NCBI RefSeq assembly: GCF_000237865.1
Contig: NC_017459.1
Coordinates: forward strand, 2,940,001 to 2,972,000
Source: Haloquadratum walsbyi C23
GTDB lineage: Archaea; Halobacteriota; Halobacteria; Halobacteriales; Haloferacaceae
Reading direction: 5' to 3'
DNA length: 32,000 nucleotides
The translations under genes and the position numbers were made by a program. The notes beneath the pieces were generated by a model. The model did not search any database and was not told the origin of the DNA. It saw only the letters and a program-made list of their open reading frames with translations. Of the stretch, positions 1-25,709 are shown one piece after another. The number at the start of each line of letters is the position of its first letter. The first letter of the stretch is position 1.

Positions 1-199
1 GTCTGATATCTCGAGAAATACCATACGCATATCTCGGATATATACCTGAGAGGTCATGCTAGCGTGTCAGACGTTCCCAGCAGAGACTCTATGTGAACCT
101 ATGATATTCTTTCCGCAGTAAACGGCGGAGTTCCCATATGCGGAGGCTTGCTGGGTTGTGAGATTTATGATTTCATACTCCGGGAGGGAATGCGGGTCA

Positions 200-470
200 T
201 GCCATACGACACCCCACTGTCGAAAGACGGGGATTCGGGGTTATTGTGCGCTTCCTGCACCCCGTTCGCCTGATGAAAAGTGTATTTTCAATGATGAAAA
301 GAAGAATCCCGACACTGTCTCAGCGAAAGAAAGGAGAGACCACCTCGGTCAGACTCGATGTAGCGTGAACCGCCTCGGGGTCAAGCTCCGAGGCACTCGG
401 TCTGTTCCGCCTGTAGAACCGATTAAACTGCGTGCAGACGGTGTATCCCCGCCTGAAACACGAGGTATGA
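200..470 (-). mobile_element. 3'-terminal fragment of an IS1341-type (tnpB-only IS200/IS605) element: last tnpB codons, stop-codon hairpin and a downstream RE-like hairpin
   Basis: On the minus strand, 373-393 (cctcggagcttgaccccgagg) plus the following cggttcac matches 13421-13449 at the end of tnpB copy 1. The upstream reading ..GDTPSARS..GSTGGTDRVP.. resembles the tnpB1 tail [19 protein letters not shown] second hairpin (ccccgtc tttc gac agt gggg) lies at 211-236. Confidence 0.45.
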
Positions 471-2594: not shown

Positions 2595-2833
2595 ACGTTC
2601 GATACCCGAGCAAGCGGGAAGTATCTTCCTACTTTCGGGTTTGCCTTGAGACAACACTTGAATACAGTCCCATCGCAAATACAGCATTATCTGATGTTGG
2701 CTTCCGTGTCAGCTACCCAGCGCTGCAGTACTTCATGAAACATTTTGAACCATCGGTCCTATGCAGCAGTATCAGCAGCTACTCTATGCCAAGATTTTGA
2801 ATTGAATTCCTCAATAAGTTTTCAGGAACATTA

Positions 2834-2942
2834 AAGCGCTGGGCTTGTCGGTGGACTCCCGTTCTACCGATACGTAGTAGGTGTCGGACGCCACTTCAGT
2901 AGCGTTCACGGTCATGATCCCCGACTTCAGGGCGTACTGACA
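2834..2942 (+). repeat. Degenerate IS1341-type right-end (omega-RNA-like) fragment
   Basis: aagcgctggg..gtcggtggact.. resembles 14427-14470 downstream of tnpB copy 2 (acgcgctgga..ctcggtggcaat). It ends in a decayed hairpin unit, gatCCCCGACttcaGGGCGTACtgaca (2916-2942). Confidence 0.3.
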
Positions 2943-2954
2943 GAACGCCCCTCC

Positions 2955-3222
2955 AGCCCTGTCTCTTACCCACAACTCGAGTCAGGATTTCAGCGGAACG
3001 GGATCGGGATCGGCGAGCACGACTGAAATCCTCGGTATCTACAGTTTCAACACCTCTTTGGAACAATTGTAGTGGGCTTGATTACCGGCGTTCGGTCACC
3101 CCTACAGCCGATATCACTGTCTGAATCGCTTCTCGCCTCGATTTTTTGCGTTCAAAATACCTCTGAGAGTGTCTGAAACGTCCGGTTACGACCCCACGAA
3201 CTTGTGGGTAAGAGACAGGGCT
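2955..3222. mobile_element. 268-bp MITE-like element with perfect 21-bp terminal inverted repeats and an interior derived from a truncated tnpB element
   Basis: 2955-2975 agccctgtctcttacccacaa is the exact reverse complement of 3202-3222. On the minus strand, 3218->3172 matches 12488-12534 at 43/47 positions. The interior at about 3127-3160 resembles tnpB1 coding sequence at about 12554-12590. An internal hairpin aggatttcag/ctgaaatcct lies at about 2984-3032. Confidence 0.7.
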
Positions 3223-3794
3223 AAAGCCGGTGGGCTTCCGCGCTGTATATCGTGTGAACGCAGAGGAACCCGGCGCGTGAGTGGTGGAGATTTCAGGTTT
3301 GTAGTCCTATCAAACTCTGACATGGTGAGACTCCATGCCGGGTTCACGGACTGTGGCAGTCGGGACTGGGACTACTTGGGGTGCTGAGCGCCTGGTACTC
3401 CTATCCTCAATCGTGTTCGGACTCCCAGAGTTGATTTTACTCTAGAAGTCCGACAGACTTCGACGGACTCGGAGTTACTTCCTTGATGCGTGCAATAATC
3501 AATCCCATGCCGATTATGTGAGAATCGGGCGGTCGCCGACTGGTTTCGATTATTGCTTTGATGCGTGGAGCGGCAAAACCGCCATTATAGGACGATGTAG
3601 AATCACTCTATTCTCACCTGATTCCTACTTTTGAATGGAATTGTCTGCTAATTGAAATTATAAATCAAGAATATCGGACAGGTGTCGAAACATGGACTGG
3701 TTCCATATTGTCAGGTTCATTTTGCGGTACCGAGGTCGGTGGTCTCGTTCGCATTGCTTCGTTCAACATGTCGTAACTGTGGGTACCAGAAATC
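3223..3794 (-). mobile_element. About 0.57-kb tnpB-less IS1341-derived element (omega-RNA-like body), decayed
   Basis: The minus strand starts with a degenerate copy of the shared terminus (3794->3775 gatttctggtacccacagtt). The body is collinear by eye with 23617-23863 (shared 16-mer ggactcggagttactt at 3464-3479 and 23848-23863; caggtttg / gactcc blocks). It ends in a decayed RE hairpin at about 3236-3275. Confidence 0.4.
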
Positions 3795-3879
3795 TGCAAT
3801 TCTGTGGACGGCGAAAGTCATAATTATTCTCATCGAATTTATATGTATCATAATGTTCGACAATCACAGCGAATTATGA

Positions 3880-4560
3880 CTATTCGCTGGTGATAGATTC
3901 GAGATACCCGAGCGTATCTTCGATCCGAGTTAATTCAGGACCAGTCGTATCCTCGCCAACGACATATCCGGTTTGTCCGGCAACAATACCGGACCCGACA
4001 AGTGGTGCACCGTAATTGACTGTTCCAATATCAGCACGAACATCTAAATGGTCTTCAATTGCCTCGAGTTCGGGTTCACGTGCTTTAGGATGACAGAGAA
4101 CACCACGATTTGTTGCTACTGCAGCGGTTCCTACGGTGCGAACATCTGCAAGCTTGCCGCGGGCAACTGGAACATTAAGTGCGGATTCAACACTCTCGAC
4201 AGCTTCTGTGGAGAGATCAGGATGGACATATGCGCCATAGTCATTCGCAAGGATAACATTGCCAGCAGCATTAATTCGACCAGGAAGTTCGGTAACTGAG
4301 ACAGAGGCCGTTGTTTCAATCGCCTCCTTTTCACGCATTGTTACATTGCTTGTGACGAGGATTCCATTTTCATTTCCAGTTGCAAGCGCCCCAACAGTTC
4401 CAGAGCCACCAATTGTCGTTGCAACGGCTGGGATATCGAGTTCGGCTGCCATTGCATCAGCGGTGTCATCATCTACATCAGAGCGGAGAAGAAGCACATC
4501 ATCGGTCGCACGCGCGAAGACGCCAACATATGGCGACCCGGCGAAAGAGGCACGAAGCAC
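3880..4560 (-). CDS. eif6: Translation initiation factor 6 (aIF6)
   Basis: A GTG start at 4560, 1 nt after the rpl31e stop, gives 226 aa: (M)[54 protein letters not shown]. This is the typical aIF6 repeat pattern. The longer ORF-track start would overlap rpl31e. Confidence 0.9.
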
Positions 4561-8053: not shown

Positions 8054-8452
8054 ATGTATCGTCAACAGATTCTCGATCATTACAAGAATCCTCGAAACAA
8101 GGGTGAGATACCTGATCCGGACTTCTCACATACCGGCGAGAATCCGTCATGTGGCGATACCATCACTGTGAACGTGCAATTGAAAGATGATAATGAAACA
8201 ATCGAATATGTGAGCTTTACAGGGGATGGATGTGCGATTAGTCAGGCATCAGCATCTATGCTTTCAGAGCATTTACAGGGAATGACGTTAGAGGAGCTTG
8301 ACACGCTTGATACTGATGATGTGACAGAGATGCTTGGTGTTGATATCTCACCAATGCGAATCAAATGTGCGGTTCTTGCACGACAGGTTGCACAGGATGG
8401 AGCAGCCATACATGATGGTGAAATAGCGATTGAAGCAACGACGGTCGAGTAA
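8054..8452 (+). CDS. sufU: Fe-S cluster assembly scaffold / sulfur acceptor, SufU(IscU/NifU-like)
   Basis: MYRQQILDHYKNPRNKG.., GENPSCGD, GDGCAISQASASM, RIKCAVLA are SufU-type motifs. The start was chosen at 8054 from the family N-terminus and TATA spacing; 8036 is possible. Confidence 0.85.
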   Translation: MYRQQILDHYKNPRNKGEIPDPDFSHTGENPSCGDTITVNVQLKDDNETIEYVSFTGDGCAISQASASMLSEHLQGMTLEELDTLDTDDVTEMLGVDISPMRIKCAVLARQVAQDGAAIHDGEIAIEATTVE

Positions 8453-8490
8453 AAACTCAATTCAATTCGAATTATATCCGATAAGCAGGC

Positions 8491-8526
8491 GAAAAACCTC
8501 GCCCTTCAGGGCGGGGAAGATGTCAA
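8491..8526 (+). repeat. Solitary RE-type hairpin unit (R-unit) in the sufU 3' region
   Basis: gaaaaaCCTCGCCCttcaGGGCGGGGaagatgtcaa: an 8-bp stem, ttca loop and GATGTCAA tail. The architecture matches the terminal hairpin of the tnpB element at 14535-14569. It starts 39 nt after the sufU stop, on the same strand. Confidence 0.6.
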
Positions 8527-8618
8527 ATCATCATATTCCGTACTTACATTCATCTCAATAACTATGAACAGTATCGGGCATTTTCAGTGATCATTTCAAT
8601 AAGAGACTTACAACGGTA

Positions 8619-8638
8619 GCGAGGCGAAAGCCCGCGAT
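8619..8638 (+). repeat. 5' half of an R-unit split by a MITE insertion
   Basis: gcgaggcgaaagCCCGCGAt aligns with tcgaggagaaagCTCACGAc (15821-15840). The complementary 3' half is at 9161-9184. Confidence 0.5.
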
Positions 8639-8644
8639 TATACC

Positions 8645-9159
8645 CTGTCTTTTACGCACAAGTTGTCCCGACGAGATGGACGGGGTGAAGCGGTGAAAAT
8701 TGCTCCCATTGTCGGGAGTTGGGAATCTCATCTTAAGTAACCGGGTATGCTGACGACGAGTTGACCCGGCTTGAGTAGTCCCTGTGACCCAATCGGTAAT
8801 CCCGGTTGGCGCCTTATGATGATACACTCATCTGTAGCAGTCGGTACCTGCGGAATATCTGGATTAGAACTGTCCGAGTGACAAACTGACACCTGCGATC
8901 AGAGGGGTCAAAACACCGGGTATTCGCTTCTACAGATGAGCGTGGTGATTAATTCAAATAGTTTCACCGGCGGTGTCGAATGACGCGAATTCAGCGGCTC
9001 CCATCACCGATACGGATAATCACGGCGGTTAAGACTAAGACTTAGACTTGGACTAATCGCTATCAGTCCGTCAGGATTTGTCTCAGACCCTGCTTGAAAG
9101 CGGCTAAAACGTCACGTTGGGATGCTGTGGACTTATGAGTAAAAGTCAGGATTTCAGTC
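8645..9159 (+). mobile_element. 515-bp MITE-like element with imperfect 19-nt terminal inverted repeats and an omega-RNA-like interior
   Basis: Left end ctgtcttttacgcacaagt (8645-8663). Right end 9141-9159 acttatgagtaaaagtcag, whose reverse complement ctgacttttactcataagt matches at 15/19. The interior has blocks shared with 23617-23863(-) and with the tnpB2 3' region (9005-9028 vs 14439-14463). An internal 12-bp inverted repeat actcatctgtag/ctacagatgag lies at about 8825 and 8931. Confidence 0.6.
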
Positions 9160-9160
9160 G

Positions 9161-9184
9161 TGGGAGGAGGTCAATTGAAGTCAT
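9161..9184 (+). repeat. 3' half of the split R-unit
   Basis: atttcaGTCGTGGGaggaggtcaa aligns with ttcaATCGTGGGagaagtca (15841-15860). GTCGTGGG pairs with CCCGCGA(t) at 8631-8638. Confidence 0.5.
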
Positions 9185-12407: not shown

Positions 12408-12536
12408 ATATGCAATACGTGTTGAACGTAATAAACGGTGTCGCAGATGGATTACAGAAGTTCAAGGAGAAAGCCCTCCCTTGAGGTCTGTCTTTTACAC
12501 ATAAGTTCGTGGAGTCGTAACCGGACGTTTCAGAGT

Positions 12537-13433
12537 ATGACGTTTTCGCAGTCTGGCTTCGAACTCAAAAACACGAGTGACCGACACGCGACAATCTGGC
12601 TCTCCAAAATCGGAGACATCCCGATCCGCTACCACCGCGAAATCCCTGACGAAGCGGACATCAAAGAAGTTACCGTCAAGAAGGAAACAACCGGTAAGTG
12701 GTTCGTCTGCTTCGGGCTCGAAACCGACGACGCTGACCTTCCTGAGAAACCCGACGTGGAGTCTCTCAACACAACCAACAGCGTTGGGATTGATCTCGGT
12801 AGTCTCAATTACATCTACACAACCGATGGGAAGACCGTGGATTGGCTTGATCTCGAAGACGACTACGAGCGATCGCGCCGCGAACAACGCAAACTCTCAC
12901 GGAAGCAGAAAGGGTCGAACAACTACGAGAAACAACGGCGAGAAGTAGCGAAGCTGAAGCGGCACATCCGTCGGACAGTGTTGGACTACCAGCACAAAAT
13001 AACGACGTGGCTCGTCCGTGAGTACGACGCGGTGTTCGTCGAGGACTTGGACGTAAAGGGAATGTTGGAGCAGTCGCACAATGCTCGCAACAAGCAAGAT
13101 GCAGCGTGGCGACAGTTCATTACACTGCTCGAGTATAAGGCCGGTCTGTACGGCTGTCACGTCGTGCAGATCAAACCAGAGGGAACGACGAAAGAATGTG
13201 CGTCGTGTGGTGTAGAAACAGCAAAACCGATTTGGGTACGTGAACACTCCTGCCCGTCATGTGGGTTTGAGTGTGATCGTGACGCGAATGCGGCGATGAA
13301 TGTCCTGCAACGCGGTTTTTTTGAAGTAGGGCTGGAATGGCCCGAAGACACGCCTGTGGAGACTGCGCTCCCTACGGACACCCATTCGGTGTCTGCAAAG
13401 CGCGTCATCGAAACAGGAAGCCTCGGGGCTTGA
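12537..13433 (+). pseudogene. tnpB: tnpB (OrfB/IS1341-type RNA-guided nuclease family), copy 1, N-terminally truncated
   Basis: RuvC motifs SVGIDLG, VFVEDLDVKGM and CDRDANAAMN. Zinc ribbon CASCG..CPSCG. The RuvC Asp lies only about 85 aa after the first Met, compared with about 190 in full-length TnpB, so the REC/WED N-terminal part is missing. The frame stays open upstream through the terminus to 12438. Confidence 0.8.
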
Positions 13434-13440
13434 CCCCAAG

Positions 13441-14325
13441 ACGGTTCACTCGGCTATTCAGGACCAAGCCATTCGAGAAGCGAAATCTGACCACAGCAAA
13501 GATGGGGAAGTTGAATACCGAGAGAGTCAACCGTTCGCAGTCAACAACCAGAATGGGGAGATCGACACAACCGATAACGGCACAGTCGTCATCGGATTCC
13601 CGTGTGTTTCTCAGTGGTGGTACACGCCTATTGAAGTGTACGACGATATTGCCGATTCTGTAGACCGACTGGTCGAAGGTGACGCCGACAAATCCCGTCT
13701 ACAGGTCTACGGTCGTGGCGACGACTGGTACTGTACATTCAACGCCGAGTACGATACCGACACGTCGAATGGGACATCCATCGGTGTCGATATTGGCGAA
13801 CGACATATTCTCGCTGCAACGGCTTATGATGAAGATGAGTCAATGCTGGTGTCAGGTGATGAGGCAAAGTACGTTCGGCGCAAATATCGTTCCCTACGCG
13901 ATTCGCTCCAACAAGCGGGTGCGCTTCGCGCACGCAACCGTGTGGGTGACAAAGAACAGCGTCGAATCAAGGACTTAAATCATAAACTCTCACGTCGCCT
14001 CATCACGTTCGCGGAACAGTTCAAGAATCCAGTCATCAAACTGGAAGACCTCGAAGGTATCCGCAAGAATAGCTCGTGGTCAGCCATTCACTCGTGGCAC
14101 TTCTATCAACTCCAACAGTTCATCACGTACAAAGCAGAACGTGCTGGTATCAGCGTCGAGAAGGTTGACCCGTACCGTACCAGCAAACTATGTTCAGAAT
14201 GTGGTTCAATTGGAACTCGTGATGAAGATCACTTTTTATGTTCGGAGTGTGACCGTGGACGACATGCCGACCTAAATGCTTCAGAGAATATTGCACAACG
14301 TGAGGGAGAACCATGCACGGCGTAG
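13441..14325 (+). pseudogene. tnpB: tnpB, copy 2 (different subfamily), N-terminally truncated, no start codon at the junction
   Basis: The frame is open from about 13420: ..[35 protein letters not shown]. RuvC motifs [18 protein letters not shown] and [10 protein letters not shown]. Zinc ribbon CSECG..CSECD. The ORF track starts only at GTG 13636. Confidence 0.75.
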
Positions 14326-14569
<244 letters not shown>

Positions 14570-14609
14570 TTAATTTATTGATACTCATAAGATATCGTGC
14601 AGACTGATA

Positions 14610-23579: not shown

Positions 23580-23863
23580 TTGACATTCTCCTCCGTCTGA
23601 AGGCAGGAGGGATCACGGCACCGCACCGCTTCGCTGAGTTGGGGGTGTCAGGTTTGGGTTTGAGTTTGGGTTTGCAGACTCCCAATACTAATACCAAGTC
23701 AGTCCACCGTTGGAATCGGTGTGTGACCGGTCACTGCGCAATCTCCAGGGAGTGCTACATCTCAGCCCCCAATGCTCCTCTCCTCACCTGAGGCGAAGTC
23801 CCTGTGTTGGTTGTGCCACAGGAGTTTCGATCATTGTCACTGTCACCGGACTCGGAGTTACTT
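23580..23863 (-). mobile_element. 3' part of a tnpB-less IS1341-derived element (omega-RNA-like body with intact terminal R hairpin), separated from its 5' part by an IS1595 insertion
   Basis: The minus strand ends gatCCCTCCTGCCttcaGACGGAGGAGaatgtcaa (23614->23580). The body shares blocks with 8868-9030 and 14439-14463 (cacaccg..caac.cggtgg) and with 3260-3479. Confidence 0.55.
23651..23674 (+). repeat. Hexamer microsatellite (GGTTTG-like x4)
   Basis: ggtttg ggtttg agtttg ggtttg, read directly. It lies inside the element above. Confidence 0.8.
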
Positions 23864-24871
23864 GTACGCTCTTGTGAAGTACATTGTTGGTGAGTCAGAG
23901 AACTTCTCGGATAATCTGTTTCAGTGCTTCTTGTCCCGGTTTGCGGAGGATTCGTCGCCGAAGTTGGAACGGCCTGAGATATGCTGTCAGTTTGTCCTTT
24001 GAGACGCCTCGATGCGGCGAGAGCCACCGTCGCGCCAGCGACGCGTGGCTCTCGCACGTGTTCACATGTGCGTCTCCATCAACGTACTCGCCGTCACCGT
24101 GAATTACTGATTCTCGGTGGAAGCTCTCATCATTGTCGAGTGGATCGTAGGCACGAAATCCGTCAGTATAGATGCTCAGCGACTCCTTCTCGTGGTTGTC
24201 GAGAAGGAGTCGCACGGTCGTTTCATCGGCGGATTTCGCTGGGACGACGTATCGCTGACCGCTGCCCCGATCAACGAGCGTGAACACTGGCGGTTTATCA
24301 CCCTCATACGTTCCTCGTCCGCGTTTCGAGAGGGCACGCGAGCGCGACTCTCGATCGCGCTCGCGACCTTTCTTCCCAGCAGAGACATAGAACTCGTCGA
24401 TCTCGACCGGTCCAACGAGATCGATTGTTGGCGCGTCGAGCGTTCTGGCGAACTGCTCGACGCGCCGGTGAAGCGAGCGATACGAAACGTCAATTTCAGC
24501 GTCTAACTGGCGGATACTCGTGTTGAACCGGAGGAACGAGTAGAACGCGAACAACAGCTTATCGAGGCCGATCTTCGCGTGCGCAAAAATCGTGCCGGTT
24601 TTGTCGTTGAACGTGCGGTCGCAATCCTTACACAGGTACCGTTGATACTCTCGATAGCTGCCGTGTTTGATTACCGACTCAGACTGGCAGCGCGGGCAAC
24701 AGAGGCCCTCTCGCCAGCGAACCTGCTCCAGCAGGTTCGCGGCGCTCGCCTCTGAGCTCAGCAATTCAAATGGGAACATTGCGTTCAGGTGACGCGTCGC
24801 GTCACTCTTGCCCGCTACGCTTTCACGGCGATAGCTTTACCCGACCAACAATCTGCTTCAGAAGAGCGTAC
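23864..24871 (-). mobile_element. IS1595-family insertion sequence (about 1.0 kb)
   Basis: Imperfect terminal inverted repeats: 23864-23891 gtacgctcttgtgaagtacattgttggt vs the reverse complement of 24844-24871, gtacgctcttctgaagcagattgttggt (25/28). It has a single transposase ORF. The exact tips and target duplication were not resolved. Confidence 0.75.
23895..24779 (-). CDS. IS1595-family transposase (N-terminal zinc ribbon + DDE domain)
   Basis: 294 aa: CPRCQS..KHGSYREYQRYLCKDCDRTFNDKTGT zinc-ribbon motif, then a DDE region (..VEIDEFYV.., ..IYTDGFRAY.., ..NTCESHASLARRW). Confidence 0.88.
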   Translation of the reverse strand: MFPFELLSSEASAANLLEQVRWREGLCCPRCQSESVIKHGSYREYQRYLCKDCDRTFNDKTGTIFAHAKIGLDKLLFAFYSFLRFNTSIRQLDAEIDVSYRSLHRRVEQFARTLDAPTIDLVGPVEIDEFYVSAGKKGRERDRESRSRALSKRGRGTYEGDKPPVFTLVDRGSGQRYVVPAKSADETTVRLLLDNHEKESLSIYTDGFRAYDPLDNDESFHRESVIHGDGEYVDGDAHVNTCESHASLARRWLSPHRGVSKDKLTAYLRPFQLRRRILRKPGQEALKQIIREVL

Positions 24872-25089
24872 TTGTATTGGTGACGAGAGCCCAATGGCTG
24901 TTTGATTCCCACATGGGGCACCCTGTTTCCAGCGTGGGCGGACACTCTCACTCGAATCGCCACTTTTCGGGCACTCGGCTGCATCGGGGTCAGAGCCAAT
25001 GCGCCGTTGTACAGCAAAACCGGTTGAAAACTACAGTATGACGGCGCGTATCCACGCCGTGAGCAGGCGTGGTATTGCGCCTGTACCAT
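24872..25089 (-). mobile_element. 5' part of the element interrupted by the IS1595 copy
   Basis: A GC-rich non-coding block starts right after the dedA stop. It has a hairpin ccacgcc tgctcac ggcgtgg near 25040-25060. The block adjoining the IS (24878-24915) loosely parallels 3480-3512. Confidence 0.35.
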
Positions 25090-25608
25090 CTATAATAACC
25101 GACCTGAGAGTAAAAACAACCCAGCAAGAGCACATTCAAAAACAACGGTTCCGATTGCGGATAATGTAATAAATTGGCGATCATTCATCTCAGCAAATCC
25201 TGCAGGAACGGTGAGCATCCCACGTGTGAATAATAATGCGTTGCTAAGAGGAATAATAAAGGGACCCCAGCGTTCAAACCACCCATCGAATCGTTCAAGT
25301 TTGGATGGCTTGATCCGAAACCACGATTTCTGGAGAAGATACTCACGACCTCCATGCTGTGCGAGTTTAAATAATACATATTGACCAATTGTTGCACCAG
25401 CCACTGCAACCCCAATAATGGGGATAACAGCATCATCACCAAGCAATAATAACGATCCAGGGACAATAAACTCACTTGGCATGAAGTACATCAACATCGC
25501 CCCCTCAAGTATGAATATACCAAAGAGGGCAATATAAGCCCACTCTGACTCAAGAAGTGCCACCAATTGTGGGGGCATTGACTCAAGTTGCAGCGGGAAT
25601 ACTAACAT
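25090..25608 (-). CDS. DedA/SNARE-associated family membrane protein
   Basis: 172 aa from the ATG at 25608: ..YIALFGIFILEGAMLMYFMPSEFIVP..GATIGQYVLFKLAQHGGREYL..FERWGPFIIPLSNALLFTRGMLTVPAG. Confidence 0.85.
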   Translation of the reverse strand: MLVFPLQLESMPPQLVALLESEWAYIALFGIFILEGAMLMYFMPSEFIVPGSLLLLGDDAVIPIIGVAVAGATIGQYVLFKLAQHGGREYLLQKSWFRIKPSKLERFDGWFERWGPFIIPLSNALLFTRGMLTVPAGFAEMNDRQFITLSAIGTVVFECALAGLFLLSGRLL

Positions 25609-25709
25609 CAATTCAAATTATTGTGGAAAGCCACAAACTCGTTTCGCTATGAATTCGGAAGTAGCTCGCATAACAGTGAGAACGATGCGGCTTTTTTGCT
25701 TCAGATAGG

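Follow-up and report, generated by a model that had tools for sequence, protein, structure and literature searches.

The window analysed here is a 32,000-nt segment of a haloarchaeal chromosome, Haloquadratum walsbyi C23 positions 2,940,001-2,972,000 (G+C about 47%), to which strain HBSQ001 is about 99% identical. According to open reading frame (ORF) and Pfam annotation, it carries, in this order, ftsY, pfdA, rplX (L18Ae), a 1.3-kb gap, eif6, sufS, sufU, radA, two tandem tnpB fragments (tnpB1, 12537-13433; tnpB2, 13434-14325), NMD3, an IS1595-family transposase gene and a VTT/DedA gene. We studied three non-coding bodies of about 0.5 kb (copies 1, 2 and 3), which an earlier note had taken for mutually related, free-standing genes of omega RNA (ωRNA, the guide RNA of TnpB) derived from the 3′ region of tnpB2, and which lie, as it stated, co-oriented with eif6, sufU and dedA, respectively. 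We found the observation partly confirmed: the feature is real, belongs to a kind already described, and holds for two of the three copies. The question raised by the locus is thereby closed, the "orphan guide RNAs" being catalogued palindrome-associated transposable elements (PATEs), two of the three of which are real relatives.

PATEs were described as IS605-derived, transposase-free elements that occur in 177-194 copies per H. walsbyi genome and are often invaded by miniature transposable elements with inverted repeats (MITEs), small mobile repeats and transposons (Dyall-Smith et al. 2011, PMC3119063). In the same study, HqIRS56 insertions were strain-specific in seven of seven cases, and disruption affected most tnpB genes of H. 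walsbyi and essentially all of its tnpA genes. Four strain-specific events in its Table S5 map exactly onto the window (window coordinate + 2,940,000): the core-deletion PATE HqIRS47 at 365-417, the HqIRS39 MITE at 8825-8942, a 34-nt replacement at 12488-12521 and ISHwa6 at 23867-24868. An Rfam scan of the window at the gathering threshold returned no match, copies 1-3 remained unmatched even at E ≤ 10 when 2650-3900 and the whole window were scanned by E-value, and a metatranscriptome paper (PMC9684190) holds no information on non-coding RNAs or PATEs.

Copies 1 and 3 belong to one element family

In a blastn self-comparison of the window the three bodies showed no mutual similarity, because they are too diverged for BLAST; together with repeat finding, this search returned just left-end, MITE and insertion-sequence (IS) repeats. 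Local alignment of copy 1 (3223-3794, minus strand) with copy 3 freed of its inserted IS gave a score of 61 versus 25.8 ± 3.3 for shuffled sequences (z = 10.6), a diverged, significant similarity that spans the 3′ ~240 nt. Copy 2 (8645-9159) stayed within noise against both of them in pairwise, profile and covariance-model tests, as did the region downstream of tnpB2 (14326-14569) in pairwise comparison with the copies. The claim of three related bodies therefore holds for copies 1 and 3, which are homologous by all three tests, but not for copy 2. The 16-mer proposed as shared, GGACTCGGAGTTACTT, is real; its two exact matches, at 3465 and 23848, represent the conserved 5′ start of the ωRNA scaffold.

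Alignment of the relatives revealed discrete units of ~520 nt (about 500-540), which occur in at least 15 haloarchaeal genera. Conserved-motif scans, one of genomes and one of metagenomes, gave 17 and 111 loci, and a profile hidden Markov model of the family has 149 matches in 133 loci of genomes and metagenomes, 45 of them full-length and 104-105 with an intact 3′ end; in the window it detects copy 1 and the 3′ part of copy 3 only (Table 1). Elements start with a left-end hairpin (AAGGAGAATACCTGCGGCTTCAGCCGCAGGATGAATCC) just past TTATA, a pentamer found directly 5′ of 40 of the 46 distinct full-length copies, and end with GGATTCCTCCGCGTTTACGCGGAGGAGGATGTCAA, beyond which the flanks are unrelated. 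The 3′ boundary, …GGAGGATGTCAA|, is preceded by a right-end hairpin with a UUYA loop, and the hairpins of both ends covary across the family. Since 88 distinct 3′ flanks occur among 104, the element inserts at many sites, with up to seven sites per plasmid record. There are two left-end subtypes, of which copy 3 carries that of HqIRS56 (CAGGCGCAATACCACG...CGTGGATACGCGCCGTCA).

Near-terminal palindromes, the TTATA and 3′ termini, the lack of terminal inverted repeats and the lack of a conserved ORF or gene are the features of PATEs, and the ends of the family are those published for HqIRS56-type PATEs and ISHwa21 (Table S9, PMC3119063). With no tnpB beside copies 1 and 3 or the other members, the elements are PATEs. 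Thus, instead of free-standing genes, we are dealing with presumably mobile, non-autonomous IS200/IS605 elements that have left and right ends and a TTATA target. One metagenome contig with a typical haloarchaeal PATE 3′ module (profile 172-530) is binned as 'uncultured Bacteroidetes bacterium' (CAJXKO010000078.1) and is probably a mis-binned haloarchaeal contig.

Two coding interpretations of the elements were rejected. In relatives, open frames of up to 193 codons occur on the antisense strand, but neither their phase and sequence nor their start is conserved between members, in line with the earlier view that no credible ORF is present. A tnpB pseudogene was dismissed because none of the PATEs gave a tblastn signal apart from nucleotide-level overlap, whether the queries were the tnpB fragments of the window or the full-length TnpB proteins of Har. 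marismortui and Halobellus.

Table 1. Position and evidence of the features discussed in the text (window coordinates; bits refer to covariance model R1)
Feature	Position	Strand	Evidence or detail
Copy 1, decayed HqIRS56-type PATE, left-end subtype i	3251..3760	-	nhmmer E = 9e-86 (3726-3251 on profile 44-516 of 530); 150.1 bits
AAGTAACTCCGAGTCC, 5′ start motif of ωRNA scaffold	3465..3480	-	second exact copy at 23848-23863
Copy 3, 5′ part: left end subtype ii and ~170-nt 5′ module	24869..25090	-	GATGGTACAGGCGCAATACCACG...CGTGGATACGCGCCGTCA
Copy 3, 3′ part: complete ωRNA-like module	23580..23866	-	nhmmer E = 5e-15 (23865-23580 on profile 296-530); 75.5 bits
ISHwa6 (ISH4-type, IS1595 family), 1002 bp	23867..24868	-	transposase ORF 23895-24779
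IS1595-family transposase	23895-24779	-	Pfam DDE_Tnp_IS1595
VTT/DedA gene	25090-25611	-	
Copy 2, unrelated composite	8612..9174	+	no profile or covariance-model match; short blastn matches only
HqIRS39 MITE, 118 nt	8825..8942	.	8-bp target duplication; holds 'aactgtccgagtgacaaactgaca' block
Small-mobile-repeat-like element, ~110 nt	8817..9062	+	inverted repeats TAGTGATTAG...CTAATCACTA; holds 'caccg..cggtg'; split by HqIRS39
Second decayed IS605-type remnant	2825..3253	-	read from sequence; boundaries inferred
Tn5-type MITE, HqIRS35-like	2955..3222	.	perfect 21-nt inverted repeats; 260-268 bp
Right end and ωRNA region of truncated tnpB2	14326..14569	+	ORF fragment 13434-14325 (Pfam)

Copy 1 is dead, an IS605-type remnant and a MITE having replaced its 3′ hairpin arm and boundary. 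Its ωRNA-like module covers ~3251-3489, and the 5′ boundary is placed to within 25 nt on either side because the left-end hairpin has decayed; the 5′ oligonucleotide is unrecognisable. At the other end, the span first given for the copy has to be trimmed, as homology stops at ~3251 and 3223-3250 is the left end of the second IS605-type remnant. The terminal hairpin is severed after its loop (…CCTCTGCGTTCAC|ACGATATACAGCGCGG…), its 3′ arm and the GATGTCAA boundary that marks the 3′ end of intact members are gone, and with the boundary lost a guide cannot be assigned. A sensitive blastn search of plasmids with copy 1 as query returned 16 haloarchaeal records (best E = 3e-54, ~70-73% identity over ~400 nt), mostly in unannotated DNA, with one match overlapping a hypothetical-protein coding sequence (CDS); no tnpB was found beside the match in the three contexts inspected. 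HBSQ001 and metagenome contigs carry copy 1 at the identical position, and the whole stack of elements is kept in HBSQ001 and several metagenome contigs.

Copy 3 is a single 501-nt PATE running from 25090 to 23580 on the minus strand and split by ISHwa6, which made an 8-bp target duplication (TACAAGTA) and inserted precisely where the 5′ start motif of the ωRNA module lies. This module is thereby cut off from its 5′ module. The insertion is strain-specific; it is listed in Table S5 (row 684, C23 2963867-2964868, 'in_repeat'; PMC3119063), and its 1002 bp are absent from two orthologous contigs (empty sites). The ωRNA module and its boundary are intact, scoring ~10 bits lower than uninterrupted orthologues; the 3′ end consists of the hairpin CCTCCTGCC-TTCA-GACGGAGG followed by AGAATGTCAA, and the would-be guide is the flank from 23579 downward (TACTGGTATCCAATAGGTCT). 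Right-end hairpins had been assigned to two of the three bodies; that of copy 3 is intact, whereas that of copy 1 is cut in the loop and that of copy 2 is degenerate. The left end of copy 3, with the palindrome CCACG...CGTGG next to a TTATA target at 25091-25095, is common to many haloarchaeal plasmids, two Natrarchaeobaculum records covering 81% of the 5′ part. Its ends match those published for HqIRS56 in Table S9 (PMC3119063), closely so at the 5′ end. Copy 3, too, is found at the same site in metagenome contigs, so that no empty site was seen for either copy. The TTATA|G junction of copy 3 (25090-25095) falls within the stop codon of the VTT/DedA gene (TAG, 25092-25090, minus strand); as the last base of this codon lies inside the inserted element, the gene may have had its 3′ end remodelled by the insertion.

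Copy 2 is a different IS605-type remnant, filled with a MITE and a small mobile repeat, and stands outside the PATE family. Its left end is of the TTAC type and resembles ISNph18/HqIRS54 in comparison with Table S9, its core is low-copy and its right end degenerate (GGGAGGAGGTCAA). Neither block that it was said to share survives scrutiny. The 'aactgtccgagtgacaaactgaca' block sits in the HqIRS39 MITE ('INSERT_MITE ... in_repeat HqIRS39', Table S5 row 680, PMC3119063), which is strain-specific and absent from one other contig, and the 'caccg..cggtg' block belongs to the small mobile repeat, of which copies 86-91% identical occur in at least eight other loci, in one of them within a PATE 5′ module. 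A motif scan also located Tn5-like ends at 8645 and 9130-9149, with nested mobile repeats inside; the 505 bp that they enclose are too long for HqIRS35, and the target duplication does not fit.

Structure and relatives of the 3′ and 5′ modules

We aligned 49 non-redundant 3′ modules of ~243 nt (alignment A3) and built the covariance model R1 from this alignment. The RNAalifold consensus comprises 47 pairs in 10 helices, with 97.3% of cells paired. It contains 21 compensatory pairs, compared with 8.0 ± 1.5 in shuffled alignments (0/500) and 4-9 when partners were slid; the diverged subfamily that contains copy 3 has 27 versus 10.9 shuffled, in a model-fitted alignment. The structure closes with the hairpin and GGAGGAUGUCAA exactly where the flanks diverge, which is the case in copy 3, the boundary of copy 1 being lost.

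Intact tnpB genes match R1 over the last ~140 nt of the ORF and ~48 nt up to the right end. The tnpB 3′ ends of Har. marismortui pNG500 and Halobellus ramosii score 129.6 and 133.8 bits, and three further tnpB-linked sites, including Hrr. ezzemoulense (59), reach 59-64 bits; copy 2 gave no match. An intact module used as blastn query likewise matches the 3′ termini of CDSs annotated as 'RNA-guided endonuclease TnpB' (70-74% identity over 158 nt). In pNG500, where the tnpB CDS spans 984-2300, the match at 2201-2348 takes in the final 100 nt of the ORF and the 48 nt that follow up to the right end, where an ωRNA canonically lies. The 16-mer of Table 1 is conserved in the PATE family, recurs in the Har. 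marismortui tnpB 3′ end and resembles the 5′ part of a published VNG_sot0042 cloning primer (ACGTATCTCCGAGTCCCG). Between the PATE module and the tnpB-linked ωRNA, one hairpin changes in a compensatory manner (GGGGG/CUCCC versus GGCUG/CAGCC), and intact members align end-to-end with the Rfam family RF02656, sot0042 (27-36 bits, E from 6e-8 to 2e-3). Judged by sequence and covariation, the 3′ ~240 nt encode a structured RNA homologous to the ωRNA, or sense overlapping transcript RNA (sotRNA), of a clade of haloarchaeal tnpB genes, whose 3′ ends that RNA overlaps. The proposal of an ωRNA-type scaffold without a linked nuclease gene thus holds for copies 1 and 3, the covariance model matching tnpB-linked ωRNA sites.

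The proposed derivation from tnpB2 found no such support. The region downstream of tnpB2 is not significantly similar to the copies in pairwise comparison and scores a marginal 8.4 bits with R1 (E ~0.04), Rfam HgcC giving 17.9 bits; in a forced alignment it has only the terminal ~60 nt (AACCTGAA...hairpin...GAGAATGTCAA) in common with them. The tnpB2 right end represents a different ωRNA lineage. That three ~0.5-kb copies derived from tnpB2 act as independent ωRNA genes is hardly credible: IS605-type ends do occur on all three regions, and the terminal ~60-nt motif is common to the tnpB2 right end, but copy 2 fails all similarity tests, its shared blocks belonging to other mobile elements, and the 8.4 bits of the tnpB2 region contrast with 60-134 bits for the truly related tnpB lineage.

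Upstream of the ωRNA-like part, the copy-1-type family has a conserved, structured, PATE-specific 5′ module of ~230 nt, for which we found no prior description. Its consensus has 41 pairs (95% paired), with 16 compensatory pairs versus 7.1 ± 1.7 shuffled. About half of these 16 fall in the left-end hairpin, a structure that the DNA itself also requires. Many pairs are G-U, pointing to the same strand as the ωRNA, and the module is conserved across genera. Insertion sequences with tnpB share only its first ~55 nt (the left end), the interior being confined to PATE copies. No TnpB coding remnant was detected in it by tblastn, and no group I or II intron (IStron-like) or known ribozyme by Rfam at E ≤ 1 in four intact members. 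Tentatively, though we hold this to be unlikely, its interior would be an undescribed RNA domain fused to a stand-alone ωRNA. It might then serve as a promoter, take over processing or stabilisation in place of the tnpB mRNA context, or extend the guide-RNA scaffold, and the ~500-nt PATE would be a dedicated RNA gene parasitising both TnpA and TnpB.

Two sequence peculiarities of the 3′ module were seen in passing. CAAACC-type repeats precede the P9 helix in the copy-3 subfamily (window 23640-23680 and one other locus), and in four loci GTCCGT is repeated two to three times immediately after AAGTAACTCCGA in the ωRNA 5′ motif, a short tandem expansion.

A natural candidate pair for use in trans was also encountered, in Halorubrum ezzemoulense and a related metagenome contig. 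Both encode a full-length TnpB, 55-60% identical to that of Har. marismortui pNG500, with its own ωRNA (59-61 bits with R1), and both carry a co-oriented, intact PATE (294 bits) ~1 kb downstream.

Proposed service in trans and competing explanations

We consider it likely that copies 1 and 3 are diverged HqIRS56-type PATEs whose 3′ module is homologous to ωRNA and which were served in trans by TnpA and TnpB. The boundaries, the target motif, the multi-site spread, the RNA-type covariation and the homology to tnpB-linked ωRNAs are established here; the steps of a mechanism we infer for the family from known IS200/IS605 and TnpB biology, including that of Meers et al. (2023). TnpA supplied in trans would move the element as single-stranded DNA to a position beside TTATA. 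The transcript, or a processed 3′ part starting at AAGUAACUCC, would be loaded in trans by the TnpB of an autonomous relative, with the ~16-20 nt of flank transcribed past GAUGUCAA as guide. After excision, TnpB would re-cut the TTATA-adjacent empty site, and recombination would restore the element. The IS200/IS605 and TnpB biology behind these steps reportedly goes back to work of Karvelis (2021) and Altae-Tran (2021).

Several findings weigh against this interpretation. The window copies deviate from the consensus, copy 1 retaining 34 of 47 pairs (3 of 7 in the terminal hairpin) and copy 3 retaining 33 of 47, with 7 more gapped, versus a family mean of 45.7. No tnpB ORF lies directly upstream of the PATE 3′ module in any of the 133 loci, so that the partner nuclease is a putative one. 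Both tnpB genes of the window are fragments and the tnpB and tnpA genes of H. walsbyi are mostly disrupted, which makes present activity doubtful. The gathering score of sot0042, 88 bits, is not reached by the intact members, and the window copies are unmatched at E ≤ 10. Part of the conservation could stem from recent horizontal spread; the shuffle control ignores relatedness. HqIRS56-type is to be read as a group label, the individual HqIRS number of each copy not being confirmable. Finally, PATE RNA expression, TnpB binding and cleavage dependent on the transposon-adjacent motif (TAM) are supported by analogy, with Hbt. salinarum and with the system of Meers et al.

A rival idea is that the elements are inert debris, that is, deletion relics of IS1341-type insertion sequences, conserved through recent spread and the DNA hairpins that TnpA needs, with a functionless RNA. 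Such relics would explain why the copies of the window are visibly decayed or interrupted, would be at home in a genome that is a graveyard of disrupted IS605-type elements, and would be compatible with the 90-97% identity of many members across genera, which fits recent spread. TnpA, however, needs the subterminal hairpins only, yet ~240 plus ~230 nt of interior covary above slid and shuffled controls. Moreover, PATEs and tnpB-linked ωRNAs keep the same structure despite strong sequence divergence, and a PATE RNA of Hbt. salinarum is expressed and gives a growth phenotype (PMC4615843). We regard inert debris as distinctly unlikely.

Alternatively, the RNA could function as something other than a guide, as a decoy, competitor or regulator that titrates TnpA or TnpB or affects neighbouring genes. 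Gomes-Filho et al. speculated along these lines about RNAs with right-end-like tetraloops, and over-expression of VNG_R0052 and sot0042 affected growth (PMC4615843); the PATE-specific 5′ modules and the position of copies directly behind genes, as in the one abutting the dedA stop codon, would suit such a role. We nevertheless judge it very improbable, since the whole ωRNA scaffold is kept beyond the tetraloop hairpin and ends precisely at the boundary, as a guide-bearing ωRNA requires, while no regulatory target is evident.

The preferred reading, PATE-borne ωRNAs used in trans, is an idea already in print (Dyall-Smith et al. 2011; Gomes-Filho et al. 2015; Meers et al. 2023). The HqIRS56-type PATEs of PMC3119063 come from the same organism and genome and agree with our elements in their length (466-688 bp), the lack of inverted terminal repeats and of target duplication, the terminal oligonucleotide TTATA, the near-terminal palindromes, the ...GGAGGATGTCAA 3′ end and their role as targets of MITEs, small mobile repeats and transposons. 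The 2011 account, however, predates ωRNAs and treats the interior as a non-coding core; what the present analysis adds is the structure of the RNA, its homology with the 3′ ends of tnpB and the distribution across many genera. Meers et al. (2023, PMC10055086) wrote of PATEs that they 'often encode ωRNAs', on which TnpB acts in trans. Their PATE-like elements of Geobacillus stearothermophilus are likewise bounded by a left and a right end and contain an ωRNA without any protein gene, with TnpA mobilisation and TnpB service in trans proposed and the TAM identical to the TnpA target. They differ in being bacterial and unrelated in sequence, in that function was demonstrated for tnpB-linked elements only, and in that the extra structured 5′ module is found in the haloarchaeal elements.

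In Halobacterium salinarum, sotRNAs and the PATE-derived VNG_R0052, which lacks tnpB, are expressed (Gomes-Filho et al. 2015, PMC4615843). VNG_sot0042, the sense overlapping transcript of a Halobacterium IS1341-type tnpB gene (RF02656), resembles the PATE module in that a GUAUCUCCGAGUCC-like motif opens it and a right-end-like hairpin with a UUCA tetraloop closes it, but it overlaps the tnpB ORF, which the PATE module does not, and the PATE scores fall below the gathering threshold. Unlike our elements, VNG_R0052 is a 99-nt terminal-only PATE (comparable to 8477-8526) and not a 520-nt unit with full scaffold and 5′ module. HgcC (RF00062) has a UUYA terminal hairpin and a GGAGGUCA-like tail as well, with weak matches at 8426-8539 and 14403-14582; these lie below threshold, and the right-end hairpin alone is common to both. 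From the canonical ωRNA of TnpB, copies 1 and 3 and the other family members differ in the absence of a cis overlap with tnpB.

As by-products, the analysis yielded a well-populated alignment and a covariance model that connect a widespread family of haloarchaeal PATEs with the ωRNA of one particular TnpB clade, the definition of TTATA as target and TAM, and a second structured module in PATEs. If TnpB uses PATE RNAs in trans, the hundreds of PATEs present in genomes like that of H. walsbyi would form a large pool of guides that compete for few intact nucleases, which bears on the persistence of IS200/IS605 elements after gene decay.

Other mobile-element remnants in the window

The second IS605-type remnant inserted into the loop of the copy 1 right-end hairpin, and its own left-end hairpin was in turn split by the Tn5-type MITE. 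This left end is similar to 12465-12487 and 8622-8644 and was compared with the 5′ ends of ISNph18/HqIRS54 (Table S9). For motifs of the CTGTCT...AAGT kind we considered HqIRS35, a MITE of 241-266 bp whose parent is the Tn5-type ISHwa2 (PMC3119063, Table S8), with terminal inverted repeats related to ISHwa2 and a 10-bp target duplication. An end-motif scan located the core CTGTCTCTTACCCACAAG ends of the MITE at 2959 and 3218; its size fits HqIRS35, but its 10-bp flanks match at only 6 of 10 positions. Three metagenome contigs are identical on the rplX-pfdA-ftsY side and then continue into unrelated upstream genes, switching ~10-20 nt from the decayed right-end-like end GCGCTTTAATGTTCC (2825-2839), at window ~2833-2846. 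A genuine rearrangement, or an alternative context, at the remnant may account for the switch, and so may chimeric assembly at a repeat.

The two tnpB fragments are distinct and stand head to tail (12453-14325, plus strand). tnpB1 lacks its N-terminal region; immediately before it, an IS605 left-end hairpin (TTAC AGAAGTTCAAGGAGAAAGCCCTCCCTTGAGG) holds a 47-nt fragment of a Tn5-type MITE (12488-12534). The C-terminal tail of tnpB1 and its own ωRNA are missing as well, and the fragment continues directly into tnpB2. The Tn5-type motif at 12488 is thus a fragment of 34-47 nt, and in HBSQ001 the 34 nt at 12488-12521 correspond to 957 nt that they replaced (PMC3119063, Table S5).

Three further mobile-element features were noted. 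At 365-417 (minus strand), the C23-specific HqIRS47 (core_deletion) of Table S5 is a 53-nt terminal-only PATE, TCTAC AGGCGGAACAGACCGAGTGCCTCGGAGCTTGACCCCGAGGCGGTTCAC, with its left end fused to its right end, resembling the published 52-bp HqIRS46/ISHwa23 core deletions (PMC3119063). Downstream of ftsY, 101-254 (minus strand) is a decayed remnant similar to an ωRNA and right end (16.8 bits, E ~5e-5) that ends with CCGCCGTTTACTGCGGAAAGAATATCAT. A 50-nt mini-PATE at 8472-8526 (plus strand), straight after TTATA (TCCGATAAGCAGGCGAAAAACCTCGCCCTTCAGGGCGGGGAAGATGTCAA) and with a weak Rfam HgcC match of 24.9 bits, has an analogue in VNG_R0052 of Hbt. salinarum, which is 99 nt long and expressed.

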